Shown here: piece by piece, positions 607 to 26,484 of the stretch
Layout: every line of letters begins with the position of its first letter
How positions within the stretch are numbered: the first letter of the stretch is position 1
Assembly (NCBI GenBank): GCA_051654865.1
Contig: JBOFYV010000007.1
Span: 32,053 to 96,052, forward strand
From: Peptostreptococcaceae bacterium
Lineage (GTDB): Bacteria > Bacillota > Clostridia > Peptostreptococcales > Peptostreptococcaceae
Length of the DNA: 64,000 nucleotides
Direction: 5' to 3'
Notes under the pieces: model-generated
The model's input: the letters and a program-made list of their open reading frames with translations, nothing else
What the model was told of the DNA's origin: nothing
Databases searched by the model: none
Made by a program: the position numbers and the translations under genes

Positions 607-1956
607 ATGGAACTAGAATTATTTAAAGAAAAGTTATTTAAAAAGGCTAAAGATGAAGGCTTTAAAGAATATGAAATATATTATAATAAGGGTGAAAGTA
701 TAAATATATCAGTTTATGATAGTAGTATAGATAAATATAATATAGAAAAATCTTTTGGTTTATCATTCAGAGGTAAACTAAATAACAAGATGGGATACTC
801 CTTTACAGAGATTATAGATGAAGATGCAATAGATATGCTTATAAAAAAGGCTAAAGATGCAACAAAGGTTATAGAGAATAATGATGAACAGTTTATATAT
901 AGTGGAGATAGTGAGTATAAATCTATAAAAACATATTATGAAAAGCTAGAAAATGTCAAAGCTGATAAACTAATAGATATTGCAATAAGCCTAGAGAAGG
1001 AAACAAAAGCTTACAATAAAAATGTTATTAATACAAATGGATGTAAAGTATCATATAATACATCTGAGTACGGGCTATCTAATAGTAAAGGATTAAACTT
1101 GAGTAATAGAAATAATTTATTAGTAGCTTATGTAGTACCTATAGTTCAGTATGAAAATAGAAAGTACGATGGCATAGGATATGTAGTAGCTAGAAGTTTA
1201 GATGAGGTTAAACCAAAAGAAATAGCTAAAGAAGGTGTAGAGGATGCTATATCTAAAATTGGATCAAAGAGTATAGCATCAAAAAAATACAAAGGCATTA
1301 TCTATAATGAAGCAATGGTTTCACTAATTCAAACTTTTTCAGAAATATTTAGTGCAGATGCTGTACAAAAAGGATTATCACTTTTAAAGGACAAAGAAGG
1401 TGAGATTATTGCATCTAAAGCACTAACGCTTGTAGATGATCCATTTTTAGAAAATGGCTTAGGCTCAGCATCATTTGATGATGAAGGTGTAGCTACATAC
1501 AAAAAAGATATAATTGCTAATGGAAAGCTAAATACTTTATTGTATAACTTAAAAACTGCCAATAAGGCTAATGTAAAATCTACCGGTAATGGATTTAAGA
1601 GTTCGTATGCATCTACAATAGGAACATCAGCTACAAACTTATATATAAAAAAGGGTGATTATACATTTAATGAACTTTTAAAAAATTTAAATGAAGGTGT
1701 TGTAATAACCGATTTTCAAGGGACGCACTCTGGTGCAAATTCAATAACTGGAGACTTTTCACTTGCAGCTAAGGGGTATTACGTAATTAATGGTAAAAAA
1801 GAGTATCCTATAGAACAAATAACCGTTGCAGGTAATTATTTTGAATTATTAAAGAGTATAGAATGTATAGGTGATGACCTTGTCTTCCCTATGAGTAGCG
1901 TAGGATCACCATCAGTTTTAATAAAGAGTTTATCAATAGCAGGTAAAAATAAATAA
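607..1956 (+). CDS. pmbA: PmbA/TldE-family metalloprotease
   Basis: 449 aa; C-terminal GTHSGANSITGDFSLAAKGYYV... block of TldD/PmbA family; paired with tldD upstream; terminator follows. Confidence 0.8.
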   Translation: MELELFKEKLFKKAKDEGFKEYEIYYNKGESINISVYDSSIDKYNIEKSFGLSFRGKLNNKMGYSFTEIIDEDAIDMLIKKAKDATKVIENNDEQFIYSGDSEYKSIKTYYEKLENVKADKLIDIAISLEKETKAYNKNVINTNGCKVSYNTSEYGLSNSKGLNLSNRNNLLVAYVVPIVQYENRKYDGIGYVVARSLDEVKPKEIAKEGVEDAISKIGSKSIASKKYKGIIYNEAMVSLIQTFSEIFSADAVQKGLSLLKDKEGEIIASKALTLVDDPFLENGLGSASFDDEGVATYKKDIIANGKLNTLLYNLKTANKANVKSTGNGFKSSYASTIGTSATNLYIKKGDYTFNELLKNLNEGVVITDFQGTHSGANSITGDFSLAAKGYYVINGKKEYPIEQITVAGNYFELLKSIECIGDDLVFPMSSVGSPSVLIKSLSIAGKNK

Positions 1957-1965
1957 GATAAATAA

Positions 1966-2010
1966 AAGTAAAACAAAGCGATAAACTAATCGCCTTGTTT
2001 TACTTTTGAC
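1966..2010. terminator. bidirectional rho-independent terminator between pmbA (+) and nitroreductase (-)
   Basis: arms gtaaaacaaagcgat / atcgccttgttttac (1 mismatch) followed by ttttgac. Confidence 0.7.
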
Positions 2011-2752
2011 CAAGAAAAAATTTAAGGTTTTCTATAATAGACCTTTCCATTTCTATAGAAAAATCAGCAGTAGTTTTTTTATTATATATTAATTCTCCGA
2101 AATTTTTAGCGTTAAATTTATTGGTTTTAGGCATATTACTTTCCTTTATTGAGAACATATTTAAGAGTTCACTATCTGAGAGTTCTTTGTATTTGTCATT
2201 AAATATTACGTATTCATTATCAAATCTATCTCTATATATTTTCTTATAATTATCTGGATAATAGCCAAGTGTCAACATAGCGGCTGGAAAGACATAGTTA
2301 GGTAGATTTAATAATTCTTTGTGTACCTCATAGTTTTCCATAATATCACCAATGTAACAAGATCCAATACCTAAACTTTCAGCTGCAACAACAGCATTTT
2401 GTGCTGATATTAATGCATCATTTACACTCAACATAAAATCATTCATACCTGGAGATTTAATATTTTCTATTTCACATAGCTCAAAATACTTAAACCATTT
2501 ATTTAAATCGGCTAAAAAAATTAAAATAACAGGTGCATTTTTTATAAAAGGTTGATTATCACAACTTATACTAAGTTTTTCTTTAATATTATTATCAGTT
2601 ATTTTTAAAATAGAGTACATCATCATATTACCGGCAGTAGGAGCCTTTATAGCAGAGTTAAGAACTATATCTAAATGTTCTTTTGAAATAGGTTTATCCT
2701 TATATCTTCTTAATGATACCCTATTGTAAATAGTTTCAATAGTACTATTCAT
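2000..2752 (-). CDS. nitroreductase-family NAD(P)H-dependent oxidoreductase
   Basis: 250 aa; N-terminal RVSLRRYKDKPISKEHLDIVLNSAIKAPTAGNMM motif typical of nitroreductase fold. Confidence 0.7.
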   Translation of the reverse strand: MNSTIETIYNRVSLRRYKDKPISKEHLDIVLNSAIKAPTAGNMMMYSILKITDNNIKEKLSISCDNQPFIKNAPVILIFLADLNKWFKYFELCEIENIKSPGMNDFMLSVNDALISAQNAVVAAESLGIGSCYIGDIMENYEVHKELLNLPNYVFPAAMLTLGYYPDNYKKIYRDRFDNEYVIFNDKYKELSDSELLNMFSIKESNMPKTNKFNAKNFGELIYNKKTTADFSIEMERSIIENLKFFLGQK

Positions 2753-3049
2753 ATTTATACCTCCTATAGATTAAATTTGTAGCATTTTAAATAAGATTAG
2801 ACAATGTAGACTATATTTCCTTTAAAAAGAGTATAATGATTTTAACTTAAATAACTTCAAAAAATATTGTATACATAATGTAATATAAGTATAAAAATAT
2901 AACAAATTAATACTTAGAAATTAACAAATGAGAATTATTAAGGGTTAAAATGGAATTAAATGGAATAATTTAGATAAATTTATTGTAGAACTTAAGCGTA
3001 ATATGCTAATATTATAAAGGATATATATATTTATGAGGGAGATAGGCTA

Positions 3050-4090
3050 ATGAAGATTTCAAAAGAAATATTATCTAGATATGAAGATAAAGAAATTATA
3101 TCTTACAATGTAAAGTTTGACAACGGATTTGAAGTAGAAGTTTTAAACTTAGGGGGAATTATAACAAAAATTATTACCCCGGACATAAATGGTAAATTAG
3201 AAAATATTGTATTAGGATATAAAGATATAGAAAGTTACATTGAAAATCCATCATATTTTGGAGCTATAATAGGAAGAACATCAGGGAGAATTTGTGATGG
3301 TTTAGTTAATATAGATGGTAATAAATATGATTTAGCAAAAAATTATAATCCTCATCAAGGTCATGGTGGAAATGTAGGGTTTAGTAAAAAAATATGGGAT
3401 GTAGAAATAGATGAAAAAGAAAATAGTGCTACAATAAAGTTGAAAAATATTAGTGACGATATGGAAGAAAATTACCCAGGAAAAGTTGAAGCGATTGTTT
3501 CGTTTGAAATATATGAAAATTATATTATTGAACAGACGTATGAAGCGATAGCAGATAAAACAACATTAATTAATTTAACAAATCATAGCTATTTTAATTT
3601 AAGTGGTAATATAAAAAGTCCAATAACAGAACAATACTTAACGTTAGCTTCTGATTATATATTAGAAATAGATGAAACTTGTGCTACTACAGGCAAAAAA
3701 ATAAACGTAGAACAAACTCCTTTTGACTTTAGAAAAACAGAGTGTATAGGAGATAGAATAGATGATAATCATAAACAAATACAAATTGGGTGTGGATATG
3801 ATCACTCATTTTTATTAAATAATACTGAAGAACAAATTTCTTTAGTAGATAATGTGAGTAGAAGAAGTATGACAATAAGTACAAATCAAAAGTGTGCAGT
3901 AATATATAGCATGAATTTCCCGGACAATGTTCCTTTATATAATGGAAAAGACACTCAAAGAAGATACGGTATATGTTTTGAAACGCAAGCACCTCCTATA
4001 GGAAGAGGTCTGTGCTTTATAGAAGATTCAATAATCAACAAAGATGATAAATATCTTCAAAAAACAACTTATAAATTTTCAATAAAATAA
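3050..4090 (+). CDS. galM: aldose 1-epimerase (galactose mutarotase) family protein
   Basis: 346 aa; RTSGRI...GHGGNVGFSKKIWDVE motifs of aldose epimerase; RBS gagggag upstream. Confidence 0.7.
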   Translation: MKISKEILSRYEDKEIISYNVKFDNGFEVEVLNLGGIITKIITPDINGKLENIVLGYKDIESYIENPSYFGAIIGRTSGRICDGLVNIDGNKYDLAKNYNPHQGHGGNVGFSKKIWDVEIDEKENSATIKLKNISDDMEENYPGKVEAIVSFEIYENYIIEQTYEAIADKTTLINLTNHSYFNLSGNIKSPITEQYLTLASDYILEIDETCATTGKKINVEQTPFDFRKTECIGDRIDDNHKQIQIGCGYDHSFLLNNTEEQISLVDNVSRRSMTISTNQKCAVIYSMNFPDNVPLYNGKDTQRRYGICFETQAPPIGRGLCFIEDSIINKDDKYLQKTTYKFSIK

Positions 4091-4101
4091 ATATAATTAA
4101 T

Positions 4102-4140
4102 AGAGTGTGGATATTATTTCTACACTCTTTATTTTTAAAA
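4102..4140 (+). terminator. rho-independent terminator
   Basis: agagtgtgg...ctacactct hairpin then ttatttttaaaa. Confidence 0.7.
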
Positions 4141-4176
4141 AACGTACATTGTATACAATAACAAAAGGAGTAAAAT

Positions 4177-5322
4177 ATGAAAAATGTTAGTGTAAGAAAG
4201 TGTAATGACTATAGTTATGAAAATGTTAAAGTATCTATAGAAAAACTAATTGAAGATTTGGGAGGTTTAGACAAATATATAAAACCTAACAGTAAGGTAT
4301 TAGTTAAACCGAACTTACTTATGAAAAAAACACCAGAGGAAGCGACTACAACTCATCCTATGGTGGTAAGGGTAGTATGTGAAAAGCTGCTTGAACTAAA
4401 TTGTAAAGTAACAATAGCTGATAGTCCAGGAGGACCTTATACTATAGCATCATTAAAAAGTATTTATAAGTCAACAGGACTAGAAGAAGTAGCAAAGGAT
4501 TTAAATATAGATTTAAATTATGATATATCGGAAATAAAGGTAGAAAATGAAAATGCGAATGCACTTAGATATATGGATATAATAAAACCTATAAAAGATG
4601 CTGATTGTGTAGTGAATTTATGCAAATTAAAAACGCACCAAATGGCTACCTTTACAGGTGGGACAAAAAACTTGTACGGATGTATAGCGGGACTAAAGAA
4701 GGCAGAAATTCACTATAGATTTCCGACGGAAGAACTATTTTGTCAAGACGTATTGCTAGATATATGCTCATATATAAACCCAACACTTACTATAATGGAT
4801 GGGATTGTTGGTATGGAAGGAGAAGGACCATCTGCAGGAGTGCCAAGAAAAATTGGTGCAGTTCTAGCATCCTCTAGTCCATATGCAATAGATTATGTAG
4901 CATGTAAATTGATAAACCTAGAGGCAAAAAGAGTACCTACATTAATAGGAGCTATAAAAAGAGATTATATAAAAGAGGATGCTTCAGATATAAATATTAT
5001 AGGTGATGATATTAATCCAATAATTATATATGATTTTGATATTCCAAATACAAGTAAGGACTTTAGGTTATTGTCATCAAGTTTGCCTAAATTTATTCAT
5101 GAACCTTTAACTAAGATGATTACACCTAAACCTTCAATAAGGCATAAAGATTGTATAAAATGCAGTAAGTGTATAGAAGCTTGTCCGGCAAAAGTAATGA
5201 AACTAAAAGATAAAGTTGAAATAGATTTATCTAAATGTATAAGATGTTATTGTTGTCATGAATTATGTCCTAAAAAGGCTGTAGATATAAAGCGTAGTTT
5301 TATATTTAAACTTATAAAATAA
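4177..5322 (+). CDS. DUF362-domain protein with C-terminal 2x[4Fe-4S] ferredoxin domain
   Basis: 381 aa; C-terminal CIKCSKCIEACP and CIRCYCCHELCP cysteine motifs; RBS aaaggag. Confidence 0.6.
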   Translation: MKNVSVRKCNDYSYENVKVSIEKLIEDLGGLDKYIKPNSKVLVKPNLLMKKTPEEATTTHPMVVRVVCEKLLELNCKVTIADSPGGPYTIASLKSIYKSTGLEEVAKDLNIDLNYDISEIKVENENANALRYMDIIKPIKDADCVVNLCKLKTHQMATFTGGTKNLYGCIAGLKKAEIHYRFPTEELFCQDVLLDICSYINPTLTIMDGIVGMEGEGPSAGVPRKIGAVLASSSPYAIDYVACKLINLEAKRVPTLIGAIKRDYIKEDASDINIIGDDINPIIIYDFDIPNTSKDFRLLSSSLPKFIHEPLTKMITPKPSIRHKDCIKCSKCIEACPAKVMKLKDKVEIDLSKCIRCYCCHELCPKKAVDIKRSFIFKLIK

Positions 5323-5430
5323 AAATATTATTAAGTATATTATAAATGAGTATAAATATTGTATATAAAAAAATATTATGTTATTCTTTTATATAACAAA
5401 GATAAATATTAGGAACATATGAGGTACTAT

Positions 5431-5904
5431 ATGAAAATAAATGAATTATTAAACTTTATAGATAATGAAAATGATAAAAATATTATAAATAAAATGCTAC
5501 TAGATAAAGAAGAAACGCTAAATACATTTATTTCAAGTGTTATAAGTGATTTACTAAATGGCCTTTTATTAGAAGATGAATTTAAAGTAAATGCTAACAA
5601 TAATATAAAAAGTTATGATGATATTTCTTTAGGAGAGATAGCTACATTTACAGCACTAATTCCTTATGTACAATTAGCGTTAAAAGAAAATAAAGATGGA
5701 TATACAATATCAACATCATTTGTTGAAGCATTAATTAGTTATATAGTGGGATGTATAGCTAGAGATGAATTTAAAAAGCAACTTATTCAAATAAAAATAA
5801 TTTTAAATATATCTGATAAATTATATGAAGCAATGATTAAATATTTTAGTTATCAAAAAAATGATATTACTATAAAAATATTAGAAAATACCTATGGAGC
5901 CTAA
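5431..5904 (+). CDS. hypothetical protein
   Basis: ORF 5419..5904; ATG at 5431 has better RBS spacing (gagg 7 nt upstream). Confidence 0.45.
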   Translation: MKINELLNFIDNENDKNIINKMLLDKEETLNTFISSVISDLLNGLLLEDEFKVNANNNIKSYDDISLGEIATFTALIPYVQLALKENKDGYTISTSFVEALISYIVGCIARDEFKKQLIQIKIILNISDKLYEAMIKYFSYQKNDITIKILENTYGA

Positions 5905-5920
5905 ACCATAGGTATTTTTT
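5891..5920 (+). terminator. rho-independent terminator
   Basis: cctatgg agcctaaa ccatagg followed by tatttttt. Confidence 0.7.
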
Positions 5921-6111
5921 AATAAACAAAAAAGGGGAGGACAATATGCTAAAATGATAAACAAGAATACTTGCCCTAAATATAATATTTACTTTTTATA
6001 AAAAATTATGACAGAAAAAGAAGGTAGAAATTACTTTTATTGGGTATGAATTATATTATTATTAGATTTATGATATAATAAGGAAAGACAATAATACTTA
6101 GGAGTGAAAAT

Positions 6112-6414
6112 ATGGAATTAGAAATATTTATATCACAAACTGCAAAAGCAGAACTTGATAAATTATTAGAAAATAGCGATAAAAAATATATAAGAGTTTT
6201 AACAAGAAGACCATCTATATATGAGCAAGCGACTTTTGACTTAGAGCTTGATGATGTAAAATCAAATGATATTACATTTTTTGTAGATGATTATAAGGTT
6301 ATAATAGAGGTTACCTTAGCTTCTCAATTAGAAAGTGTAAGTATATCTTACGGGGGATTATTTAGTAGAGATAAATTCTGTGTTGATGCAGACTTAGGAA
6401 TTTTCCGTTATTAA
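6112..6414 (+). CDS. small HesB/YneR-like domain protein (hypothetical)
   Basis: 100 aa; architecture resembles the cysteine-less HesB-like YneR family; RBS aggag. Confidence 0.4.
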   Translation: MELEIFISQTAKAELDKLLENSDKKYIRVLTRRPSIYEQATFDLELDDVKSNDITFFVDDYKVIIEVTLASQLESVSISYGGLFSRDKFCVDADLGIFRY

Positions 6415-6418
6415 AAAG

Positions 6419-6448
6419 AACATAGCTAGATGGCTATGTTTTTTTTAA
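6419..6448. terminator. bidirectional terminator
   Basis: aacatagctagatggctatg hairpin followed by tttttttt; lies between convergent genes. Confidence 0.65.
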
Positions 6449-6704
6449 TATAATTTAGAGAGTCATTAAAATTATTAAAACTCTTTTTGTCAATTATAAG
6501 TCTTTCAATACCTTTATAAAAATTTTTCTCATCAAACACTTTATCAATGCTAACTTCAATATAATCATCAAAAACACTTATATAAATACACTTAGTGTAC
6601 TTATGAAAAATCTTGAATATGACAGCTTTGTTACTAGTAGTTTTAATAAAAATAAAATTACGTAAATCTATATTATCTTTGATGTGATTTAAAAAATTAT
6701 CCAT
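6426..6704 (-). CDS. hypothetical protein
   Basis: 92-aa ORF with an AT-rich promoter-like region upstream on the minus strand; no recognisable domain. Confidence 0.4.
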   Translation of the reverse strand: MDNFLNHIKDNIDLRNFIFIKTTSNKAVIFKIFHKYTKCIYISVFDDYIEVSIDKVFDEKNFYKGIERLIIDKKSFNNFNDSLNYIKKNIAI

Positions 6705-6942
6705 GTAATTGTAACTCCTTTAAAATTAGATATAGATTCTTTTAATGTTAAATAGTTTAGAAATACATACATATTATTGACAAAAACATAAAAAATATAT
6801 TTTTGAAATGTAAAATTTATAGAAAAATATTACGACATATAAATTATCAATTATATTTGTTCATAAAAAATAATTAATAAAATAGACTATAATATAGTAT
6901 TAAAATAGTTAGAAAAATGTTATTAAAAGAAGGGAGAAAAAT

Positions 6943-7689
6943 ATGAATCCAATTATAGGTATTTTATCAAATTTAACTCCTACAAATGATTCAGCATCAT
7001 TACAAGAGAAAGTATATGTAAATAATACATATATATCAGCTGTAGAAAAAGCAGGAGGGGTTCCTATTATAATACCTGTTAATACAAATAGAGATAATAT
7101 TAAACGTCAAATGGATTTAATAGATGGATTGATAATTTCAGGCGGGGCAGATATTAATCCGATTTTATATAAAGAAGAACCACTAGTAGGCCTTGGATAT
7201 TTTGATAATGATAATGATGAATTTGATATAATAGCTACAAGAATAGCCTTAATTTTAGATAAACCAATACTTGGGATTTGTAGAGGACTTCAGGTACTAA
7301 ATGTGTGCTTAGGAGGAACCTTATACCAAGATATAAATCATATAGAAGGTAGTTATATAAAGCACTCACAAGGTGCTAAAAGATTCATGGGAAGTCATTC
7401 GATTACAATAAGTGAATGGAGTAAACTAGCAGAAATACTTGGAACCGATAGTATTGTAAATAGCTTTCATCATCAAAGTGTAAAAGATCTAGGCAAAGGA
7501 TTGGTTGTAAGTGCCTCTGCTAAGGACGGTGTTATTGAAGCTATAGAATTAAAAGGAGATAAATATGCAATTGGAGTGCAGTGGCATCCTGAAGAAATGA
7601 TAGAAGAAAATGAAAATATGCTACTCTTATTTAAAAAGCTAGTAGGTATTGCAAAACAAAAGAAAGAAGAAAAAGAAGATAATGAATAG
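6943..7689 (+). CDS. gamma-glutamyl-gamma-aminobutyrate hydrolase family (peptidase C26, class I glutamine amidotransferase-like)
   Basis: 248 aa; GICRGLQVLNV catalytic-Cys motif and HHQ.. / WHPE motifs. Confidence 0.75.
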   Translation: MNPIIGILSNLTPTNDSASLQEKVYVNNTYISAVEKAGGVPIIIPVNTNRDNIKRQMDLIDGLIISGGADINPILYKEEPLVGLGYFDNDNDEFDIIATRIALILDKPILGICRGLQVLNVCLGGTLYQDINHIEGSYIKHSQGAKRFMGSHSITISEWSKLAEILGTDSIVNSFHHQSVKDLGKGLVVSASAKDGVIEAIELKGDKYAIGVQWHPEEMIEENENMLLLFKKLVGIAKQKKEEKEDNE

Positions 7690-7764
7690 GTAAAATATTG
7701 GAATTTAGAAAAAATTATAATATAATCAAATAGACAGAATTATATAAAAACATAGGGGGCAAAT

Positions 7765-8616
7765 ATGAAGAATATCGTATCGCCAAATTGGTTAAAAGAA
7801 AACATCAATAATAAAAAATTAGTTATAGTTGATTGTAGGTTTGACTTAAATGACAAAGAATATGGAAAAAAACAATATGAAAAAGAACACATAAAAGGTG
7901 CTAAAAGAGTTGATATAGAAACAGAACTATCAAGCGAAATAAAAGAATATGGAGGCAGACACCCATTACCTTCAATAAAAAAACTAGAAGAAGTCTTTAG
8001 TAATATAGGAATTAATACAGACTCAATAGTTGTAGCTTATGATGAAGGAGACTTAGCAGGACCATCTAGATTATGGTGGATACTTAAATATTTGGGTCAT
8101 AAAGAAGTCTATGTTTTAGAGGGTGGAATAAATGTATTTAAATCTATTAGTGGAGAAGTAACTAATAAAATAGAGGAAAGTAAAAAAGGCGACTTTAAAG
8201 CAAATTCACTAGAAGAACTAAAAGCAGATATGGAGTATGTAAAAAGTAGAGTAAATAATAATAAGATTGCAATAATAGATTCGAGAGAACATAAAAGATA
8301 TCTTGGAGAGTTTGAACCAGTGGATATAAAAGCGGGACATATACCAGGGGCCCTAAATTATTTTTGGATGGATATACTAGATAAAAAAGATAATTATATT
8401 TCATTAAAATCACTAAAAGAACTAAATGAAATATTTAAAGAGCTAAGAGTATATGATGAAGTAATAGTTTACTGTGGATCAGGAATCACAGCCTGTTCAA
8501 ATAGCTTAGCGTTAGATGAAATCAATATAAAGCACAAAGTATACTGTGGTAGCTTTAGTGACTGGATAAGCTATGAAGGTAATGAGGTGCAAACAGGAAT
8601 TAATGATAAAAATTAA
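7765..8616 (+). CDS. tandem-rhodanese sulfurtransferase (3-mercaptopyruvate/thiosulfate sulfurtransferase-like)
   Basis: 283 aa; two rhodanese halves; active-site CGSGITAC. Confidence 0.75.
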   Translation: MKNIVSPNWLKENINNKKLVIVDCRFDLNDKEYGKKQYEKEHIKGAKRVDIETELSSEIKEYGGRHPLPSIKKLEEVFSNIGINTDSIVVAYDEGDLAGPSRLWWILKYLGHKEVYVLEGGINVFKSISGEVTNKIEESKKGDFKANSLEELKADMEYVKSRVNNNKIAIIDSREHKRYLGEFEPVDIKAGHIPGALNYFWMDILDKKDNYISLKSLKELNEIFKELRVYDEVIVYCGSGITACSNSLALDEINIKHKVYCGSFSDWISYEGNEVQTGINDKN

Positions 8617-10420: not shown

Positions 10421-11743
10421 GTGATGATAATGAATAAAATATTTAAATTATCTTGGCCAGTAATGTTAGGAATGATTTTGCAGAGTCTGTTGTCTACTGT
10501 TGATATGGTGTTTATAGGTAAATTAGGTACCTATGAACTAGCAGCAGTTGGAATATCTAACTCTGCTTTAACTGTTGTTTTTGTAATATCAACATTTGTA
10601 TCTGCAGGGGTAGTTGCATTAGTATCTAGATATTATGGTGAAGGTGATTTAGAAAAAGTAAAACAAGTAAGTACCCAAGCATATTTACTATCATTAGTTA
10701 TTGGGGTAGTAGTAAGTATTGTATGCTGTAGTTTTACCAAACCATTTCTTAAAATTTTATTTAACCCAGAACAAAGAACTCTTCAATATGCATATGATTT
10801 TTCTGTTATTGTATTTTCAGGAACGGCCTTAGTGTTTATATCATCAACTCTTAGAACAATAGTACAATCAATAGGGAATACTAAAACTCCCTTATATATT
10901 TTTGGATTAGCAAATGTTTTAAATATTATACTTGATCCAATACTTATATATGGGTTTGATTTAGGGGTGAAAGGTGCTGCTATAGCAACCTTGAGTTCTA
11001 CTATACTTAGCTTTATATTAATGAACATAGTTATAATAAAGAGATTGTACAACAATGATAAACGTTTATTTATTAAATCTCTAAAAATATCTAAGTCAGT
11101 TTCTGTAAGAATACTAAAAATAGGAAGTTGGGCGTGCATTAAAGAGGTTACAAGACCTGTTACAGGAATGCTTATGGTTAGCTTGGTATACCTTGTAGGT
11201 AAAGAAGTTGGAAGTGCTGCGTTTTCAGTAGGTCAACAAATATTCAATTATACATTTATATTTTTAAATGGACTATCTATATCCATATCGATACTAGTAG
11301 GTCAAAATTTAGGGAAAGGTAATATTGACGAATGTTACAAATTAATTAAATCAGGGTTGAAGCTTGCCTTTATAAATATGCTAGTATTTGCAATTCCGTA
11401 TTTTATATTTCCTAAAAATATGATTTCTATATTTTCTACAGACCTAGAAGTTATAAGTGTAGGTTCATCTTATCTTAGAATTACTTATTTAGGCTTATTA
11501 TTTGTAGTTTTCCCCATAATATTAGGAGGTGTATTTCAAGGGTCAGGTGATACTAAGCCACCGATGGTATCATCAATAGTAGCTAATGTAGTATTGAAGC
11601 TACCACTAGCATATTTATTAGCAATAACATTTAAATTAGGCCTTAATGGGGTTTGGATAGCAATTGCTTTATCTGTTTTAATAGAAGCAATAATGATTGT
11701 AAATTATTATAAAAAAGATAAATGGAGGGAAAAATTAATTTGA
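10421..11743 (+). CDS. MATE-family multidrug efflux transporter
   Basis: 440 aa; 12 predicted TM helices; typical MATE N-terminus WPVMLGMILQSL..DMVFIG. Confidence 0.8.
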   Translation: MMIMNKIFKLSWPVMLGMILQSLLSTVDMVFIGKLGTYELAAVGISNSALTVVFVISTFVSAGVVALVSRYYGEGDLEKVKQVSTQAYLLSLVIGVVVSIVCCSFTKPFLKILFNPEQRTLQYAYDFSVIVFSGTALVFISSTLRTIVQSIGNTKTPLYIFGLANVLNIILDPILIYGFDLGVKGAAIATLSSTILSFILMNIVIIKRLYNNDKRLFIKSLKISKSVSVRILKIGSWACIKEVTRPVTGMLMVSLVYLVGKEVGSAAFSVGQQIFNYTFIFLNGLSISISILVGQNLGKGNIDECYKLIKSGLKLAFINMLVFAIPYFIFPKNMISIFSTDLEVISVGSSYLRITYLGLLFVVFPIILGGVFQGSGDTKPPMVSSIVANVVLKLPLAYLLAITFKLGLNGVWIAIALSVLIEAIMIVNYYKKDKWREKLI

Positions 11744-12483
11744 TGCTTTATGAGAGTGAGTTAAATGTTAATATTAAAAAATTACTATATAAAGATTTAA
11801 TAAGCAATTTAAATATTATTGGAATATTAGAAAATCAAGAAAATACAAAAATATATGTTGATGACATAAATTATCCAACAGGAATAGTAGTTAATATAGG
11901 GTATTTGAATTATATGTATACAGAAAATGAAAAATTTACAGATAAGGTTATAGACTATATCTCAAATAATAAAGGTGAGTATGGATTTAGCGGGGTGAAA
12001 AGTGAAATTGCTAAAAAAATACAATCAAGATTTAAAGTGGAATGGAAGAATCCTTGCACATTATATTATTATGATAATAACAAATATATTAGGAGTAGTA
12101 TTAAAGATAATGTATGTAGCTTAAGCGTTGATTATGCAGAAATAGTTAATAATTATTATACTTTTAAAGATGAAGATTCCTTATTTGAAATAAAAGAATC
12201 TATATTAAATAGAGTTAGCAAATGTGTATTTAAAGAAGGTGAATTGGCATCTTGGTTACTGATTCATAAAGATAATTCACTAGGTCCAATGTTTACGAGA
12301 GAAGAATATAGAAAAGAAGGGTATGCAGTAGATATTACGTTAAGTTTGGTTGATGAAATTTTAGATCAAGGTAAGATACCATATTTACAAGTAGAAAAGG
12401 GGAATTATGCATCTGAGAAGTTAGCTGAAAAATGTGGATTTAAACAATATGGAAATTGTGAATGGTTTGGTATCAGAGTATAA
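11743..12483 (+). CDS. GNAT-like acetyltransferase domain protein
   Basis: C-terminal GNAT-like block; ATG 11743 overlaps the MATE stop (TGATG), suggesting translational coupling; ORF track starts at 11722. Confidence 0.45.
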   Translation: MLYESELNVNIKKLLYKDLISNLNIIGILENQENTKIYVDDINYPTGIVVNIGYLNYMYTENEKFTDKVIDYISNNKGEYGFSGVKSEIAKKIQSRFKVEWKNPCTLYYYDNNKYIRSSIKDNVCSLSVDYAEIVNNYYTFKDEDSLFEIKESILNRVSKCVFKEGELASWLLIHKDNSLGPMFTREEYRKEGYAVDITLSLVDEILDQGKIPYLQVEKGNYASEKLAEKCGFKQYGNCEWFGIRV

Positions 12484-12522
12484 ATTATTATATTTATAAT
12501 CGATAAAGTCGTATAATACATA

Positions 12523-12580
12523 AAGTATAATTATAGGAATGTAAAATGTAATTCATAGTCCTATAATTATACTTTTTTAT
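12523..12580 (+). terminator. rho-independent terminator with a 16-bp perfect stem
   Basis: aagtataattatagga ... tcctataattatactt followed by tttttt. Confidence 0.65.
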
Positions 12581-12590
12581 ATATAAAATA

Positions 12591-12619
12591 TTGCTAAAAT
12601 ATGACATAAGTATTATTAT
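12591..12619 (+). promoter_or_regulatory. candidate sigma-A promoter for the RND/TetR operon
   Basis: TTGCTA, 17-nt spacer, TATTAT; about 50 nt upstream of the RND start. Confidence 0.4.
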
Positions 12620-12628: not shown

Positions 12629-12646
12629 AGACTGACCAGTCGGTTC
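12629..12646 (+). promoter_or_regulatory. GC-rich palindrome, candidate TetR operator
   Basis: GACTG-ac-CAGTC (5-2-5 inverted repeat) just downstream of the predicted -10, in otherwise AT-rich DNA; TetR gene is the next gene after the RND pump. Confidence 0.35.
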
Positions 12647-12668: not shown

Positions 12669-15600
12669 ATGATTTCTAAATTTAGCGTAAAAAGACCATT
12701 TACAGTAGCGGTAGGTGTAATAATGGTACTAATATTAGGTATTGTATCATTTATGAATATGACTACAGACTTATTACCAAGTGTTGATCTACCGTATGTG
12801 ATGGTGAATACAGTGTATCCAGGTGCTAGTCCTGAAAAGGTAGAAGCTACTGTAAGTAAGCCGTTAGAACAGGCACTAGCAACAACTAGTGGGTTAGAAA
12901 ATATAAGTTCTGTATCAAGTGAAAACTCCAGCATGGTTATACTAGAGTTTAATCAAGACGTAAATATGGATTCTGCTATGATTGATGTTAGTGGAAAGAT
13001 AGATATGGTAAAAGGTATGTTTGATGAAGGTGTTCAATCTCCTGTTACAGTAAAGATGAATCCTGATATGATGCCTATAATGATGTTAAGTATTGATATT
13101 GAGGATATGGATATTAAAGAAGTAACAAAGTATGTAAATGATAATATAATGCCTAAATTTGAAAGAATAGAAGGTGTAGCATCTGTAAGTGCAGTAGGTT
13201 TAGTACAAGATCAACTGAAGATTAAACTAGATGAGAAAAAAATCGATGATATAAATAATAAGATACTAGCAAACATAGATGATGAATTATCAATACAGCA
13301 AAATGAATTAAATAAATCTAAAACAGATTTGAGTAAATCAAAACAAGAATTAGATAGTCAAAAGAAAAATCAAACCTCACAAATAGAGAGTGGACTAAAG
13401 GAATTACAAACAGCAAAAAAAGAGTTACAAGCAGCGGTTAATGTAATTGGTTTATCAAAGGGAGAGTTACAAGATAAAATCGATGAAGCTAATATGGCAT
13501 ATGCACAAAACTCATTGCAGCTTAGTACTTTGAAAGAAGCACAACGTAATCTAGTAGAAGGTTCTGAAGAGTACATAAAGCTTCAAGGGCAAATAACTGC
13601 ACTAGAAGAAGTTGATGCTAAAATTAAAGAAGGTATAAGTCAGGCTAAAAAGGGAATAGAAGCTATCGATTCTTTAGCTCAATTAGATGCAAAGGAAAAA
13701 GAGTTATTAACAGGTAAAGTAACTTTAGAAAAAGAGTTAAATAATGCATCAAGTCAAATAACTCAAGGTGAATCTCAATTAAAATCAGCACAAGAACAAT
13801 TAGATAATGCAAAAGAAAGTGCATATAAAAGTGCTAATATAAAAGATAAAATTACTCCTGAAATGATAGGAAATATATTAACGGCTGAGAATTTCTCTAT
13901 GCCAGCAGGATACATTAAAGAAAATGAAACACAATACTCTGTAAAAGTAGGAGAACAATTTGCAACTGTAGAAGAGTTGGAAAATTTACTATTATTTAAT
14001 GTAGATGTCAAAGGAGTAGGAGACATTAAAATTAAAGATGTAGCTAGTGTGGAATTTGTGGATAATTCTTCAGATACATATACAAACGTTAATGGCAATC
14101 CAGGTATAATGCTTACATTCCAAAAATCAAGTGCATATTCAACTGCAAATGTAACTAAGTCTATTAATAAAACTATAAGTAGTTTATCTAATGAAAATGA
14201 TAAAATGCATATTACAACGTTAATGGATCAAGGTGTGTATATAGATTTAATAATAGATAGTGTATTAAGTAACTTAATATATGGAGGAATACTAGCAGTT
14301 ATAGTATTATTACTTTTCCTAAGAAGCTTTAAGACTACAATTGTTGTAGCTTTTAGTATTCCAATAAGTGTGCTATTTGCAATAGTACTTATGTACTTTA
14401 GTGGTATTACATTAAATATAATATCTTTATCAGGTTTAGCACTTGGTGTGGGTATGCTAGTTGATAATAGTATTGTTGTTATTGAAAATATATACAGACT
14501 AAGAAATGAAGGAATGAGTATGGCAAAAGCTGCAGTATATGGTGCTAAACAAGTTGCAGCAGCGATTAGTGCATCAACATTAACTACAATATGTGTATTT
14601 TTACCTATAGTGTTTACTGGTGGTATGACTAAACAATTATTTGTAGATATGGGGCTTACTATAGCATATTCATTGATTGCAAGTTTGGTTGTAGCCTTAA
14701 CCGTAGTTCCAGCTATGAGTTCAAATTTATTAACTAAAGTAGATGAGAAAGAACATATTCTATTTGATAAGTTTGTAAATATATATGAAGTTATATTAAG
14801 AAAAAGCTTAAAACATAAAATAGTTGTAATATTATTTGCAATAGCATTATTAGGATTTAGTGGATATAAAGCAGTAACAATGGGAACAAGCTTTATGCCT
14901 ACAATGGATTCAACGCAGATGACAGCAACATTAACAATGCCAAAAGAAAGTAAAAAAAGTGATACTTATAAAATGAGTGATAAGTTTATTGATACATTGT
15001 TAACTATTGAAGATATAGAAACAGTAGGTGCTATGGAAAGTACTGGAATGATGGGACAAGCAGGAGAAGGAATGTCCTTTTATATAATACTAAAAGAAGA
15101 GAAGAAATTATCAAATATTGAGGTAGAAGATTTAATATATGAAAAAACTAAAGATTTAGAGTGTGAAATAAAAGTAACAGCATCAAATATGGATATGAGT
15201 GCTTTAGGTGGTTCTGGAATACAAATAGAAGTAAAAGGAACTGATCTAGATAAACTTCAGGAAATAGCAAAAGATTTAGCAGCAGTTTTATCTACAGTTG
15301 AAGGCGTTGCAGATGTATCTAATGGTATGGAAGATGCATCGACAGAAACACGTGTAGTAGTAGATAAGAATAAGGCAATGGAATATGGATTGACAGTAGC
15401 TCAAGTATATCAAAAGGTATCTAGTATCATAGAGGAAGAAAAAGAGGCAACAAAAGTTACTATAGAAAATAATGAATATCCAGTTATAGTAGCAAGTGAT
15501 GTTGATATTTCAAGATCAGATTTAAAAAAATATAAAATAAAGGCAACTAAAGGTCAGGAAGAAGTAGAAATAAAGTTATCTGATATAGCATCTATACAAA

Positions 15601-16307
15601 GTGCGAATAGCTTAGCTTCTATAAATAGAGATAATCAATCAAGATACATTACAGTAAGTGCATCAATTGATTCTAAGTTTAATATCGGGCTAGTGAGTAG
15701 AGATGTACAATCAAAGCTAAAAGATTATGAGTTACCATCAGGATATACAATTGAAATGAAAGGTGAAAATGAAACCATTAATAAATCATTTACAGATTTA
15801 TTACTTATGGGAGCATTAGCTATAGTATTCGTATACTTAATAATGGTTGCTCAGTTCCAATCGTTACTATCTCCATTTATAGTAATGTTTACAATACCTT
15901 TAGCATTTACAGGAGGATTACTTGCATTATTAGTGACTAATAATGACTTAAGTGTAATATCATTACTAGGGTTCCTAGTATTATCAGGTGTGGTAGTAAA
16001 TAATGGTATAGTATTTGTTGATTATATTAATCAACTAAGATTAAGTGGAATGAAGAAAAAAGATGCTATAATAGAAACAGGACGTACTCGTATTAGACCT
16101 ATACTTATGACAGCTCTTACAACAATATTAGCAATGTCAACAATGGCGATAGGTGTTGGTATGGGTGCAGAAATGACACAAGGGTTAGCTATAGTGACTA
16201 TTGGAGGGTTATTATATGGAACGGTACTTACATTAGTTGTTATACCAGTTTTATATGATTTATTACATAAAAAAGAATTAAAGCAAATCCTAATAGAGGA
16301 GGAATAA
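12669..16307 (+). CDS. RND-family (AcrB-like) efflux transporter permease with a large coiled-coil insertion in periplasmic loop 1
   Basis: 1212 aa; AcrB-like N-terminus and TM topology with two 6-TM bundles; about 200 extra residues (aa ~185-390) of heptad-like Q/E/K-rich sequence. Confidence 0.8.
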   Translation: MISKFSVKRPFTVAVGVIMVLILGIVSFMNMTTDLLPSVDLPYVMVNTVYPGASPEKVEATVSKPLEQALATTSGLENISSVSSENSSMVILEFNQDVNMDSAMIDVSGKIDMVKGMFDEGVQSPVTVKMNPDMMPIMMLSIDIEDMDIKEVTKYVNDNIMPKFERIEGVASVSAVGLVQDQLKIKLDEKKIDDINNKILANIDDELSIQQNELNKSKTDLSKSKQELDSQKKNQTSQIESGLKELQTAKKELQAAVNVIGLSKGELQDKIDEANMAYAQNSLQLSTLKEAQRNLVEGSEEYIKLQGQITALEEVDAKIKEGISQAKKGIEAIDSLAQLDAKEKELLTGKVTLEKELNNASSQITQGESQLKSAQEQLDNAKESAYKSANIKDKITPEMIGNILTAENFSMPAGYIKENETQYSVKVGEQFATVEELENLLLFNVDVKGVGDIKIKDVASVEFVDNSSDTYTNVNGNPGIMLTFQKSSAYSTANVTKSINKTISSLSNENDKMHITTLMDQGVYIDLIIDSVLSNLIYGGILAVIVLLLFLRSFKTTIVVAFSIPISVLFAIVLMYFSGITLNIISLSGLALGVGMLVDNSIVVIENIYRLRNEGMSMAKAAVYGAKQVAAAISASTLTTICVFLPIVFTGGMTKQLFVDMGLTIAYSLIASLVVALTVVPAMSSNLLTKVDEKEHILFDKFVNIYEVILRKSLKHKIVVILFAIALLGFSGYKAVTMGTSFMPTMDSTQMTATLTMPKESKKSDTYKMSDKFIDTLLTIEDIETVGAMESTGMMGQAGEGMSFYIILKEEKKLSNIEVEDLIYEKTKDLECEIKVTASNMDMSALGGSGIQIEVKGTDLDKLQEIAKDLAAVLSTVEGVADVSNGMEDASTETRVVVDKNKAMEYGLTVAQVYQKVSSIIEEEKEATKVTIENNEYPVIVASDVDISRSDLKKYKIKATKGQEEVEIKLSDIASIQSANSLASINRDNQSRYITVSASIDSKFNIGLVSRDVQSKLKDYELPSGYTIEMKGENETINKSFTDLLLMGALAIVFVYLIMVAQFQSLLSPFIVMFTIPLAFTGGLLALLVTNNDLSVISLLGFLVLSGVVVNNGIVFVDYINQLRLSGMKKKDAIIETGRTRIRPILMTALTTILAMSTMAIGVGMGAEMTQGLAIVTIGGLLYGTVLTLVVIPVLYDLLHKKELKQILIEEE

Positions 16308-16308: not shown

Positions 16309-16923
16309 ATGAGTTATGAAAATAAGTACTCAAAAAAAGAAATTTTAGTTTTTGAGGGATTTATAAAACTTGTAGATGAAGGCGTTAGTTTAAGTAGTAT
16401 TAAAGTTGCAGATATAGCGAAATCAGCAGGAATAGGTAAAGGCACAGTTTACGAATATTTTAGAAATAAAGAAGAAGTAATAGCAAAATCCATTTTGTAC
16501 AAGATGCACAAGGAATTTGCCAATATGATAATAAAGATAGAAAATGTTGACGGATTTAAAAATAAATGTGATGTTGGATTTCAAGAAATTCTAGAAGTAA
16601 TGACCAGTAGATGTGCATATTTTCAAATGTTAATGACAAGTAGGGAAATACATGATGTATTTAAATGTATAAATCATGGCAAAGATGAAATGATTGAATT
16701 TAGAGATTACGTTGTTGAAATACTTGAACCTATTATTGAATTAGGCATAAAAGAAGGTATAATAAACTATAAACTTGATAAGATTTATATTAGAAGTGTA
16801 TTTGTTAGTGTTTGTAGTGGGATATCAACGATTTCTCGTTTTCAGTTTGGAGAATTTAATCAAAGTGATCTGATAAGACAAAAAGATATTGCGTATACAA
16901 TGTTAATAAAAGCATTAAACTAA
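16309..16923 (+). CDS. TetR/AcrR-family transcriptional regulator
   Basis: 204 aa; N-terminal HTH IADIAKSAGIGKGTVYEYFRNKEEV; start 2 nt after the RND stop. Confidence 0.8.
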   Translation: MSYENKYSKKEILVFEGFIKLVDEGVSLSSIKVADIAKSAGIGKGTVYEYFRNKEEVIAKSILYKMHKEFANMIIKIENVDGFKNKCDVGFQEILEVMTSRCAYFQMLMTSREIHDVFKCINHGKDEMIEFRDYVVEILEPIIELGIKEGIINYKLDKIYIRSVFVSVCSGISTISRFQFGEFNQSDLIRQKDIAYTMLIKALN

Positions 16924-16925
16924 GA

Positions 16926-16955
16926 AAAGCTAGCAAAATTTGCTAGCTTTTTTTG
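16926..16955 (+). terminator. rho-independent terminator
   Basis: aaaagctagcaaa at ttgctagcttttttt. Confidence 0.8.
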
Positions 16956-17179
16956 TGAAAATCGTACAAGCAAAAACGACAAAAAAATACGAAAACAATG
17001 CTATATATAAGGATATTGAATCAAAAAAAGTATTTTCATATTGAAAGAAATGTCGAAAATAAAGAAAAAATAATACGATAAGCTTTATTGAAATACTGTT
17101 ATTTAAAAATACAAAGGAAAGCTACATTCCTTTAGTGAATTATATATATACAGAGATTTTAATAAAGGGGACAAAATAT

Positions 17180-17878
17180 ATGAAATTGAGTAAAAAAATG
17201 GTTAGCTTAATGTGCTTATCTTTAGTGATGATGGGTTTTGGCAAATCATCAACAAGTAACATAATAGATGATTCAAATTTAAGCTCAAAAGTAATTAATA
17301 AGGCTACAGATAATGTAGTCAAAGAAGCATCTATAGAAATTGAAGAAAAAGAATATATAGATGAAGAAAAAGAACGTATAGATATAGAAAATATTGAAGT
17401 CAGATATACAAGAAGTGATATGACAGTACCGAGTAATATAACAAAAGAGGAACTAGAGAACGTATTTGAAAAATACAAAGGTGCATCAACTATGAATCAT
17501 CTTGCAAGTGCATTTGTAGATGCGGAGAAAGCGTACGGAGTAAATGCGTTTGCTATGGCAGGAATAGTAGCATTAGAAAGTGGATTTGCAACATCAAGAA
17601 GAGCAGTGGAAGATAATAATCTAACAGGATATGAAGTATATGCGGATGATTCAAAAGGAAGGTTATTTTCTAGTCAATACGAAAGTATAATGCAAACTGC
17701 AAAGCATTTAGGTAAAAATTATTTAACTGAAGGTGGTCAATACTATAATGGGGTATCTGTAGATGCGGTACAAGTATCATATTGCCCTGATGAAGGTAAA
17801 GGTAAAAATTGGAACGGGAAAGTAGATTCATTAGCTTTAGGTTTTTTTAAAACCTATGAAGAAATTTATAAGAATTAA
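17180..17878 (+). CDS. secreted glucosaminidase-domain protein (mannosyl-glycoprotein endo-beta-N-acetylglucosaminidase-like, LytD/FlgJ type)
   Basis: Signal peptide MKLSKKMVSLMCLSLVMMGFG; ...AFAMAGIVALESGFATS... block of the glucosaminidase domain; RBS aaagggga before ATG 17180. Confidence 0.6.
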   Translation: MKLSKKMVSLMCLSLVMMGFGKSSTSNIIDDSNLSSKVINKATDNVVKEASIEIEEKEYIDEEKERIDIENIEVRYTRSDMTVPSNITKEELENVFEKYKGASTMNHLASAFVDAEKAYGVNAFAMAGIVALESGFATSRRAVEDNNLTGYEVYADDSKGRLFSSQYESIMQTAKHLGKNYLTEGGQYYNGVSVDAVQVSYCPDEGKGKNWNGKVDSLALGFFKTYEEIYKN

Positions 17879-24860: not shown

Positions 24861-25125
24861 AAAATAAATAAAAAAAGACTATACCTTAAATCCGATCAGG
24901 TATAGTCTAAATACAAAATATATTATAAAAAGGGGTTTATTAGGGAATATATTTTATTTGGGGAGTAAATTGGTTATTAGGGGAATAACCATGTATTAAT
25001 AATAACATTGCTTCCCAGAAAAAGCAACAAAAAACGACAAAAAAATTGAAAAAAATGAATGAGTAGCTAAAATAAACAAATAATATGTTTGAGGTCTAAT
25101 TTGTTATTGAAAGAGGTTGTGCAAA

Positions 25126-26484
25126 ATGATTTTGACGAAAGATAAATATTTTTATAAGACAGCACTTAATATAGCACTACCAATAGCTATACAAAATCTT
25201 ATTACTTTTTCTGTAAGTATGGCGGATACAGTAATGCTTGGAAACTTAGGTGAATTAAGCTTATCAGCATCATCAATAGGTAATCATCTAGGATTTTTTT
25301 TAATGGTATTAATGTTTGGTGTTGGAGGTGGTGCTAGTGTTATGGCATCTCAATATTACGGACAAAAAGATGTAGATTCTATACATAAGGTGATTGCTAT
25401 TATGTACAGAGTGTGCATTATACTTAGTGTATTTTTCGCACTTATAGCTATAATTACACCTAAATTGTTTATGAATATATATACAAATGATATAGAGGTT
25501 ATAAATGAAGGGGTATTATATATTCGAATAATTGGAATTAGTTATATATTTTACTCTATTACAAATTGTACAATTTCTATATTAAGGTCTGTAAAAACAG
25601 TAAGAATTTCGCTATTAGTATATTCAATTTCGTTAATTATAAATATATTTTTTAACTATATATTAATTTTTGGGAAGCTAGGATTTCCAGTATTAGGCAT
25701 AAGAGGAGCTGCTATTGCAACCGTTATATCAAGAATAGCTGAATTTTTAATAGTATTAATATTTATAATATATTTTGAAAAGAAGATACATCTAAGGTTT
25801 AAAGATATTACAGTTATAGATAAAGATATGATTAGTAATTTTAAAAAGGTATGCACACCTATAATATTAAATGAACTATTTTGGGCAATAGGTTCAACTA
25901 TAATTTCAATAATAGTAGGTAGAATGGGAAGAGTAGTAGTAGCTGCAAATAGTATAAATAATGTAACTTTCCAGTTTGCATCATTATTTGTTTTTGGACT
26001 TGCTAGTGCATCTTCAGTAATTATAGGTAATATTATAGGTGAAGGAAAGTACGAAAAAGCTAAAGAATATGCAAGTACAATATGTATTTTAAGTTTTGCT
26101 ATGGGGATTTTATCAGGATTAACTATATACTTAGTGAGACCGATAGTGGTTAATTTTTATAATGTATCACAAAGTACAAAAGTAATAGCTATGCAAATAA
26201 TGATAGCTACATCTATAATAGCTATATTTAAATCTTTAACATCAAATATAATGATGGGAGTACTAAGAGGTGGTGGTGATAACAAATTTGTTTTTAAAGT
26301 TGAAATGATTTTTTTATGGTGTATATCAATTCCCCTAGGATTATTAAGTGCTTTTGTATTTAAATTACCTATATTTGTAATATTTATAGCAATTAAAATA
26401 GATGAAGTTTTAAAAGCGTTAGTAGGCATACTAAGGCTAAAAAGTGGAAAATGGATAAAAGATTTTACAAGAGGATATAAATAA
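25126..26484 (+). CDS. MATE-family efflux transporter
   Basis: about 452 aa; MATE topology; RBS aaagaggt before ATG 25126. Confidence 0.8.
   Translation: MILTKDKYFYKTALNIALPIAIQNLITFSVSMADTVMLGNLGELSLSASSIGNHLGFFLMVLMFGVGGGASVMASQYYGQKDVDSIHKVIAIMYRVCIILSVFFALIAIITPKLFMNIYTNDIEVINEGVLYIRIIGISYIFYSITNCTISILRSVKTVRISLLVYSISLIINIFFNYILIFGKLGFPVLGIRGAAIATVISRIAEFLIVLIFIIYFEKKIHLRFKDITVIDKDMISNFKKVCTPIILNELFWAIGSTIISIIVGRMGRVVVAANSINNVTFQFASLFVFGLASASSVIIGNIIGEGKYEKAKEYASTICILSFAMGILSGLTIYLVRPIVVNFYNVSQSTKVIAMQIMIATSIIAIFKSLTSNIMMGVLRGGGDNKFVFKVEMIFLWCISIPLGLLSAFVFKLPIFVIFIAIKIDEVLKALVGILRLKSGKWIKDFTRGYK

Follow-up and report, generated by a model that had tools for sequence, protein, structure and literature searches.

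The DNA analysed here is a 64,000-nucleotide (nt) stretch of low GC content (25-31%) from a Peptostreptococcaceae bacterium (assembly GCA_051654865.1, contig JBOFYV010000007.1, positions 32,053-96,052), hereafter called the window, and our subject is a gene in it that encodes an AcrB-like resistance-nodulation-division (RND) permease. This protein is an RND pump with a coiled-coil extension, independent of the one in the mycobacterial transporters MmpL4 and MmpL5, in another RND family and at another site. The extension is inserted within the docking subdomain DN and is predicted with high confidence to be an antiparallel two-helix rod with ~100 residues per limb; as an α-helix rises by ~1.5 Å per residue, the modelled rod would be ~15 nm long. 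We think it probable that the pump is a stand-alone, TetR-controlled AcrB-type exporter of a monoderm bacterium, in which the DN-borne hairpin serves as a wall-penetrating stalk or exit guide.

The open reading frame (ORF) specifies 1212 amino acids (aa), and an identical protein is present in a Peptostreptococcaceae metagenome-assembled genome (MAG), where it bears the annotation 'efflux RND transporter permease subunit'. Profile and fold both assign it to the ACR_tran/AcrB family, in line with the original prediction, which was made from the sequence alone. The Pfam ACR_tran profile (PF00873) matched with E = 2e-211 and 705 bits against a gathering cut-off of 28, and the MMPL profile reached only 38.5 bits, over a transmembrane (TM) segment. 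A sequence search of the PDB returned MdtB as the top match (2.5e-96). The best NCBIfam RND model, NF033617, scored 609 bits against its cut-off of 1250, and all other named subfamilies scored lower. An AlphaFold2 (AF2) monomer model, computed for the first 1200 residues from a 23-sequence alignment, predicts an AcrB-like core with 12 TM helices, a porter domain, DN and DC docking subdomains and two large extracytoplasmic loops; Foldseek matched it to AcrD, CmeB, MtrD, AcrB and MdtB at E ~1e-52, with a TM-score of ~0.76 normalised to the target. The motifs in TM4, TM10 and TM11 are invariant in the family.

The excess length of the protein over AcrB is one insertion of ~200 residues and is not diffuse. 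TM1 ends at about aa 30 and TM2 starts at about aa 521, which gives a first extracytoplasmic loop of ~495 aa, close to the ~500 aa predicted. The ACR_tran match is split into two parts, aa 4-192 and aa 393-1200 (profile positions 1-196 and 196-1021 of 1021), so that the profile resumes after the insertion exactly where it had stopped, at position 196. The same break point was found with the NCBIfam RND models and with every PDB RND chain. On alignment with E. coli AcrB using MAFFT, the entire excess fell into a single gap between F196 and T199/P200, the latter corresponding to T396/P397 of the RND permease, and loop 2 aligned without a large gap. The original prediction had placed about 200 extra residues in one block at aa ~185-390 and had held that a diffuse spread in such an alignment would speak against it; one gap only was obtained, and the block is now delimited to aa 193-394. 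The same prediction had located the insertion where the DN subdomain is itself inserted. The docking region was correct, but the insertion actually lies within DN, in a short helix-turn-helix, and DN itself is kept. Nothing was observed at this site in any solved RND structure among the PDB RND chains compared. Directly after the hairpin re-enters DN there is a segment, NFSMPAGY (aa 408-415, 13890-13913), which varies little or not at all within the family. It aligns with the start of the inter-protomer loop of AcrB, the equivalent region of which (aa 408-432) is present, and the AF2 pLDDT (predicted local distance difference test) was low at aa 408-429 in the monomer model.

The insert contains no proline and is rich in K, L, E, Q, A and S. 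Its hydrophobic residues recur with a period of 3.5 residues (z = 7.1, above 1000 of 1000 shuffles), as against z ~0 for two control stretches of the same protein, and register tracking revealed canonical a/d heptads with few stutters. The Q/E/K/L-rich, heptad-like character proposed earlier was therefore borne out, and so was the proposed long α-helical hairpin: the full-length AF2 model and a fragment model of aa 170-480 both predict it, the latter with pLDDT values of 90-97 along both limbs, and place two helices in the ascending limb, one in the descending limb and a six-residue turn between them. With a/d periodicity, a central turn and no helix breakers in its limbs, the insert has the features of an antiparallel two-stranded coiled coil. 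In the alignment of close homologues, most relatives carry a proline in the turn (P-E-G or P-E-S). The kink in the ascending limb falls within a clade-conserved V-x-x-I-G-(L/M)-S, part of a longer motif V-x-x-I-G-(L/M)-S-(K/R)-x-E-L (aa 257-268, 13437-13472) which lies opposite the motif GIEAIDSL (13653-13676) of the descending limb at mid-hairpin. This pair may mark a hinge or a contact site. It is confined to a Peptostreptococcaceae-like clade, including a Massiliimalia locus, and does not occur in members from the Lachnospiraceae and Oscillospiraceae; a search for a functional motif conserved family-wide inside the hairpin found none beyond this clade-restricted pair. When the hairpin fragment was compared with the PDB using Foldseek, the nearest shapes were the coiled coils of Smc/MukB, RipA and MmpL5, none of them significant, and since these matches are generic no ancestry can be assigned from them.

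The insertion is common to a large pump family of the Bacillota, at one site. A scan of one genome per species, which returned insert-bearing members only, yielded 80 loci, all from Bacillota, in the Lachnospiraceae (among them Blautia producta, Dorea, Roseburia and Acetatifactor), Oscillospiraceae, Erysipelotrichaceae, Tissierellaceae, Anaerovoracaceae and Syntrophomonadaceae; Ruminococcus, Clostridium cadaveris, Terrisporobacter and Massiliimalia are also among the members. The family spans the Clostridia, Erysipelotrichia and Tissierellia. All 78 full-length homologues from the 80 loci carry the insertion at the same site, with lengths of 134-434 aa (median 275). A phmmer search with aa 155-424 against 1.8 billion cluster representatives gave 394 matches, 159 of them at E < 1e-10, and in the 124 representatives (50%-identity clusters) that include both flanks the insert measures 157-589 aa (median 293). 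In total the insertion was observed at one site in hundreds of independent genomes and metagenomes, the smallest insert found in the family being ~90 aa, and the reading frame is always kept.

The variation in length has a regular pattern. Prolines in the inserts accumulate at the midpoint irrespective of insert length, with 114 of 175 in the central fifth (binomial p = 3e-38), a pattern which holds in 64 of 79 inserts. In close relatives (65-70% identity) whose inserts measure only 91, 132 and 173 aa, the middle is missing and both bases are kept, as predicted for a hairpin trimmed from its tip. Taken as sequence patterns, the midpoint prolines and the middle-trimmed variants support a single hairpin at all lengths. 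The longest members are P0172 (1942 aa, from a metagenome, insert ~590 aa) and P0216, P0220 and P0228 (1451-1629 aa), with inserts of 540-590 aa that would, if single hairpins, reach ~40-45 nm. P0172 has in addition ~350 extra residues beyond the end of its ACR_tran match, with no Pfam match. Taxonomy is mostly absent for the ten long-insert representatives, one of which is from the Oscillospiraceae.

Gram-negative RND pumps of this type work with a membrane fusion protein (MFP) and often an outer membrane factor (OMF); our searches for such partners were confined to the neighbourhoods of the pump loci. Within the window, Pfam assigned the membrane-anchored ORFs to unrelated proteins, with no HlyD, MFP or OEP among them. 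A phmmer search with AcrA against the 1181 proteins of 81 loci returned nothing at E < 1. No MFP or OMF occurs among the 25 commonest Pfam families of 142 neighbour representatives, a count in which a singleton MFP could hide; ten membrane-anchored candidates from these neighbours, scanned directly with Pfam, were all unrelated proteins and none was an MFP. Independent gene calls combined with Pfam found no MFP or OMF within 8 kb of the loci of Paraclostridium sordellii and Romboutsia sedimentorum. The original prediction that no MFP gene flanks the pump thus stands for the window and for ~80 homologous loci, and the circumstance it had named as contrary to its reading, an MFP gene reliably co-located just outside the window, was not seen at any of the latter. 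In the insert itself there was no match to an MFP family in Pfam even at E <= 1, only generic coiled-coil noise, and the fragment model, helical from end to end, shows no lipoyl, β-barrel or membrane-proximal domain.

SwrC of Bacillus subtilis and FemT of Staphylococcus aureus are insert-free counterparts: AcrB-like RND pumps of monoderm Bacillota, described without an operonic MFP or OMF of the Gram-negative type. We take them to be ~1050-1065 aa long, with no room for a large insertion. Both belong to the Bacilli, whereas the insertion family was found in the Clostridia, Erysipelotrichia and Tissierellia. They have been described as Gram-positive pumps without an operonic periplasmic adaptor, with AlphaFold models close to AdeB and AcrB and no coiled coil mentioned (bioRxiv 10.64898/2026.08.10.744025). 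As these insert-free pumps are also described without an operonic adaptor, the absence of an MFP gene does not by itself show that the insert has replaced one. A catalogue of Clostridium difficile transporters discusses a different RND operon, in which CD630_24070 has MFP-like and TolC-like neighbours (PMC11170357). Together, this literature suggests that the relation between the insert and an adjacent MFP gene is not a simple one.

Compared with Gram-negative permeases of the AcrB/MdtB/CmeB type, the pump shares homology over the full length, the fold and the equivalents of AcrB R971 and T978, retained as R1141 and T1148. It differs in its 202-aa hairpin in DN, the absence of MFP and OMF genes nearby, its monoderm host, a proton relay in which D-N and N replace D-D and K, and scores far below the NCBIfam subfamily cut-offs. 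Canonical HAE-1 features that it lacks are thus the proton relay, the operonic MFP/OMF and the subfamily score. The hairpins of MFP/HlyD proteins such as AcrA are likewise antiparallel two-stranded coiled coils with a/d heptads that rise above the RND docking domain. The one described here is covalently part of the pump, would be present in three copies per trimer against six, has no TolC to dock with, is not accompanied by lipoyl, β-barrel or membrane-proximal domains and has no detectable homology to them. The AcrA hairpin is ~70 aa long, and the inserts are 2-8 times longer by that figure.

The closest parallel is with MmpL4 and MmpL5 (HAE-2), also RND pumps, in which an insertion of ~200 aa likewise forms an extracytoplasmic antiparallel coiled-coil hairpin; both systems work without an MFP or TolC of the Gram-negative type and are under the control of a repressor, predicted in our case to be the TetR protein encoded downstream. 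The coiled-coil insertion of MmpL5 (196 aa) lies in periplasmic domain 2 (PD2) and is essential for efflux, its hairpins have been modelled as a 13-nm trimeric tube that reaches the peptidoglycan-arabinogalactan layer, and MmpL5 is regulated by the repressor Rv0678 (PMC12501195). The two differ in RND family (705 bits for ACR_tran against 38 for MMPL in our protein), in site (DN of loop 1 against PD2 of loop 2) and in host, which is a true monoderm here and bears a mycomembrane there. A nearby MmpS partner, a tip disulphide, a conserved hydrophobic tip and a Met-rich lumen, all features of MmpL4/5, were not found. With a different family, site and set of partners, the resemblance is convergent and not orthologous.

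We hypothesise that the pump trimerises like AcrB, as the retained DN inter-protomer loop region suggests. Three acidic rods would then rise from the docking-domain crown into the cell wall, where the stalk would keep open or extend the exit path from the funnel through the peptidoglycan, and substrates expelled from the outer leaflet of the membrane would be released away from it. Such a stalk would be a functional analogue of the MmpL4/5 coiled coil and of the MFP hairpin ring that arose independently and not by capture of an MFP. Each lineage may have tuned the length of its stalk to the thickness of its envelope: if each limb takes half of the insert and a residue adds 1.5 Å, inserts of 91-589 aa correspond to ~7-45 nm, which is within the range of Gram-positive envelope dimensions. 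A bolder form of the hypothesis, which we put forward only tentatively and regard as rather doubtful, is that the AcrB-type pumps of monoderm Clostridia have become, by an evolution of their own, trans-envelope efflux machines made of a single polypeptide, with a coiled-coil duct or stalk of ~7-45 nm that carries or guides substrates from the funnel of the docking domain through the peptidoglycan, is matched in length to the envelope thickness of each lineage and is convergent with both the MmpL4/5 tube and the MFP-TolC duct.

Several observations weigh against the hypothesis of a stalk or exit guide. Over 79 inserts, ~65% of a and d positions are hydrophobic and only 8-12% of e and g positions; with polar e/g positions and no second hydrophobic seam for lateral packing, a closed conduit is unsupported. 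Conservation within the insert is lowest in the distal third, around the tip, which makes a conserved docking partner at the tip unlikely, and the tip has no cysteine and no hydrophobic patch, unlike that of MmpL5. The modelling was of the monomer, and the orientation assigned to the hairpin, both to the membrane and to the trimer axis, is provisional. Finally, in the MAFFT alignment AcrB D407-D408 correspond to D599-N600 and K940 to N1111, and the relay motifs LVDN and VVNN are unvarying among aligned family members. Given this altered relay, energetics and proton coupling may differ from those of AcrB; we assume a single-Asp relay to be closer to CusA-type pumps.

The same packing data bear on what three hairpins might form. 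Conservation among close homologues is highest at a and d (0.68), followed by e and g (0.58) and then b, c and f (0.41). The present insert has no cysteine and 0.5% methionine; inserts across the family are essentially free of cysteine, contain ~2% methionine and have a net acidic excess. As judged from these residue patterns, the heptads carry the signature of a self-sufficient, isolated two-stranded coiled coil. A sealed exit duct, in which three hairpins form a six-helix α-barrel whose lumen carries substrates as proposed for MmpL5, would nevertheless have a clear precedent, since the modelled MmpL5 tube is built from an essential hairpin which the present insert equals in size and topology (PMC12501195). 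At g, b and f the small residues Ala and Gly are often found, and the solved MmpL5-S5-AcpM chain 9mvz_D is among the matches of the hairpin fragment in Foldseek, at the non-significant rank of 25. We consider such a duct unlikely, though worth keeping in mind: the hydrophobic residues are at a and d only, the b, c and f face is unconserved, methionine is too scarce both here and family-wide for a Met-lined lumen, and the insertion emerges from DN and not from PD2. Heptads that are hydrophobic at a and d alone, little methionine and a tip that varies all speak against a sealed hydrophobic tube such as that of MmpL5; a barrel is no more likely than three struts that stand apart or associate loosely. 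The self-contained extracellular funnel of the original prediction may still hold in a weaker version, as a stalk or exit guide.

A further alternative is that the coiled coil guides no substrate and acts as a scaffold, which drives or stabilises the trimer or recruits an unlinked partner such as a wall, S-layer or lipoprotein component. A coiled-coil domain is reported to trigger oligomerisation of MmpL10 (PMC12183618), and SwrC is reported, in work cited in bioRxiv 10.64898/2026.08.10.744025, to need the accessory lipoprotein MeeY. The clade-conserved motif pair at mid-height would suit such a role. A length range of about six-fold (~90-590 aa), even among close relatives, and a variable tip would be odd for a specific docking site, and the insert is far longer than trimerisation needs in a protein that already retains the AcrB-type inter-protomer loop region of DN; TetR is the sole conserved partner gene. 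A scaffold therefore seems to us improbable. It is more improbable still that the insert derives from a periplasmic adaptor or has replaced one by fusion. MFPs do supply α-hairpins around the docking domain and no MFP gene lies near this pump or its ~80 homologues; the original prediction had suggested that the pump may have internalised the adaptor function. The suggestion was not supported, as only a coiled coil is present: Pfam gives no MFP-family similarity at E <= 1, AcrA finds nothing in the loci searched, the other three MFP domains are missing and a monoderm has no outer-membrane channel to adapt to. SwrC and FemT, free of the insert, are also described without an operonic adaptor (bioRxiv 10.64898/2026.08.10.744025), and C. 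difficile has MFP-like and TolC-like genes in a separate RND operon (PMC11170357). Neutral low-complexity expansion, or an artefact of assembly or annotation, could be suspected from the biased K/E/Q/L composition, the very variable length and the poorly conserved primary sequence. We give this hardly any credence: the hundreds of independent genomes and metagenomes agree on one site with the frame kept, the heptad register is maintained with a and d conserved and prolines confined to the turn, and no member with an insert below ~90 aa was found.

The positions of the hairpin and of the other features of the locus are collected in Table 1.

Table 1. Features of the RND locus in the window (positions are those of the window; a dot denotes no strand)
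Feature	Position	Residues	Strand	Evidence and remarks
RND permease gene	12669..16307	1212 aa	+	AcrB-type fold; Shine-Dalgarno-like AAGGGGTG precedes start
Insertion relative to AcrB-type pumps, inside DN docking subdomain	13245..13850	aa 193-394 (202 aa)	+	Profile, PDB and AcrB alignments
Hairpin, ascending limb (predicted)	13233..13547	aa 189-293	+	AF2 helices 189-260 and 264-293; kink at aa 261-263; a/d heptads
Hairpin, turn VEGSEE (predicted)	13548..13565	aa 294-299	+	AF2 loop
Hairpin, descending limb (predicted)	13566..13835	aa 300-389	+	AF2 helix 300-389; heptad register; contains GIEAIDSL (aa 329-336)
Altered proton-relay residues	14463-14468, 15999-16001	aa 599-600, aa 1111	+	Alignment with AcrB
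TetR-family regulator	16309..16923	204 aa	+	Pfam TetR_N E = 7e-9; ribosome-binding site GAGGAGGA inside end of RND gene
Intrinsic-terminator-like hairpin GCTAGCAAA / TTTGCTAGC + T7	16925..16957		+	Terminator scan; ends the two-gene operon
Promoter-like site TTGCTA, 17-nt spacer, TATTAT	12591..12619		+	Consensus scan, 9/12; GNAT-RND intergenic region
14-nt palindromic operator-like site ACTGACCAGTCGGT	12631..12644		.	Family consensus ACCGACNNGTCGGT; 24 nt upstream of RND start, just after TATTAT

The GNAT gene upstream and the TetR gene downstream that the original prediction named were both confirmed, the former as a GNAT/FR47-like acetyltransferase gene (11722-12483) which overlaps by 22 nt with a MATE gene (10421-11743, E = 2e-61). 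The start codon of the TetR gene lies 1 nt past the stop codon of the RND gene, an arrangement predicted to couple the translation of the two. On clustering the three genes either side of the RND gene at all loci, this TetR cluster was the only recurrent neighbour, found in 28 loci as the next gene downstream, in the orientation of the pump gene; 7 loci have another TetR upstream, and 6, the window included, have a MATE gene in the vicinity. The palindrome upstream of the RND gene is also shared. Of 76 loci, 23 have a ACCGACNNGTCGGT site with <=2 mismatches within 120 nt upstream of the RND start, where the frequency of such sites in the rest of the loci would predict 0.003 per 120 nt. Besides the window these are L001, L004, L005, L006, L008, L010-L012, L014, L016, L020, L030, L035, L041, L045, L052, L056, L057, L063, L065, L076 and L080; they come from several Clostridia families, and the distance to the RND start is 19-108 nt. 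The same downstream TetR cluster is present at 20 of the 23 loci with the palindrome, and the palindrome at none of the 7 loci with the different upstream TetR. It is therefore very likely, as judged from this co-occurrence, that the palindrome is the operator of the downstream TetR, and the two appear to form a conserved module with the pump, with a predicted control that follows the logic of inducible efflux. The promoter-like site is a weak match alone, such 9/12 matches being no commoner in this DNA than after shuffling; what makes it plausible is that the conserved operator follows directly downstream.

Some other features of the neighbourhood deserve mention. Just past the GNAT stop codon, in AT-rich sequence, a 24-nt inverted repeat (12522-12575, 88% complementary, with a 6-nt loop and a T-run after it) could terminate the unit before it weakly, or could act as another regulatory site. 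Directly past the terminator-like hairpin, 17135-17878 encodes a protein, secreted or anchored, in which Pfam recognises a peptidoglycan hydrolase domain of the glucosaminidase type (E = 3e-8). Its adjacency to the pump is not conserved at other loci and is probably coincidental. Further away, the ORFs 25117-26484 and 59817-61169, with 8 and 11 predicted TM segments, have MATE-like N-termini and are candidate MATE genes. At locus L055, in an Anaerovoracaceae MAG, two large ORFs (967-4422 and 4497-8102) lie upstream of the RND gene, one encoding 1152 aa with a Cna_B domain and the other 1202 aa without a Pfam match.

RND pumps are the best-studied multidrug exporters, and their mechanism is understood almost entirely from the tripartite Gram-negative setting. 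The main recent phylogeny of HAE-1 proteins left out Gram-positive proteomes by design (PMC10872679), and full-text literature searches found no description of a coiled-coil insertion in DN. We find that a very large pump family, now named only generically as 'efflux RND transporter permease subunit', carries what is predicted to be a rigid coiled-coil rod on its docking domain, a property relevant to annotation. Among its members are abundant gut genera (Blautia, Dorea, Roseburia, Ruminococcus and Acetatifactor) as well as pathogens or opportunists (Paraclostridium sordellii, Clostridium cadaveris and Terrisporobacter). The TetR/operator module offers a route to inducers and substrates, for example bile acids or host or microbial antimicrobials, and the palindrome ACCGACNNGTCGGT could mark the regulon of this TetR. 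What role AcrB-like pumps play in single-membrane bacteria has been raised as a question (PMC11170357; bioRxiv 10.64898/2026.08.10.744025), part of which is how substrates avoid falling back into the membrane. The predicted rod would be another instance, independently evolved, of what was reported in 2025 as the solution of mycobacterial MmpL5, and the hairpin may be the reason why such pumps can work with none of the helper proteins of Gram-negative bacteria.

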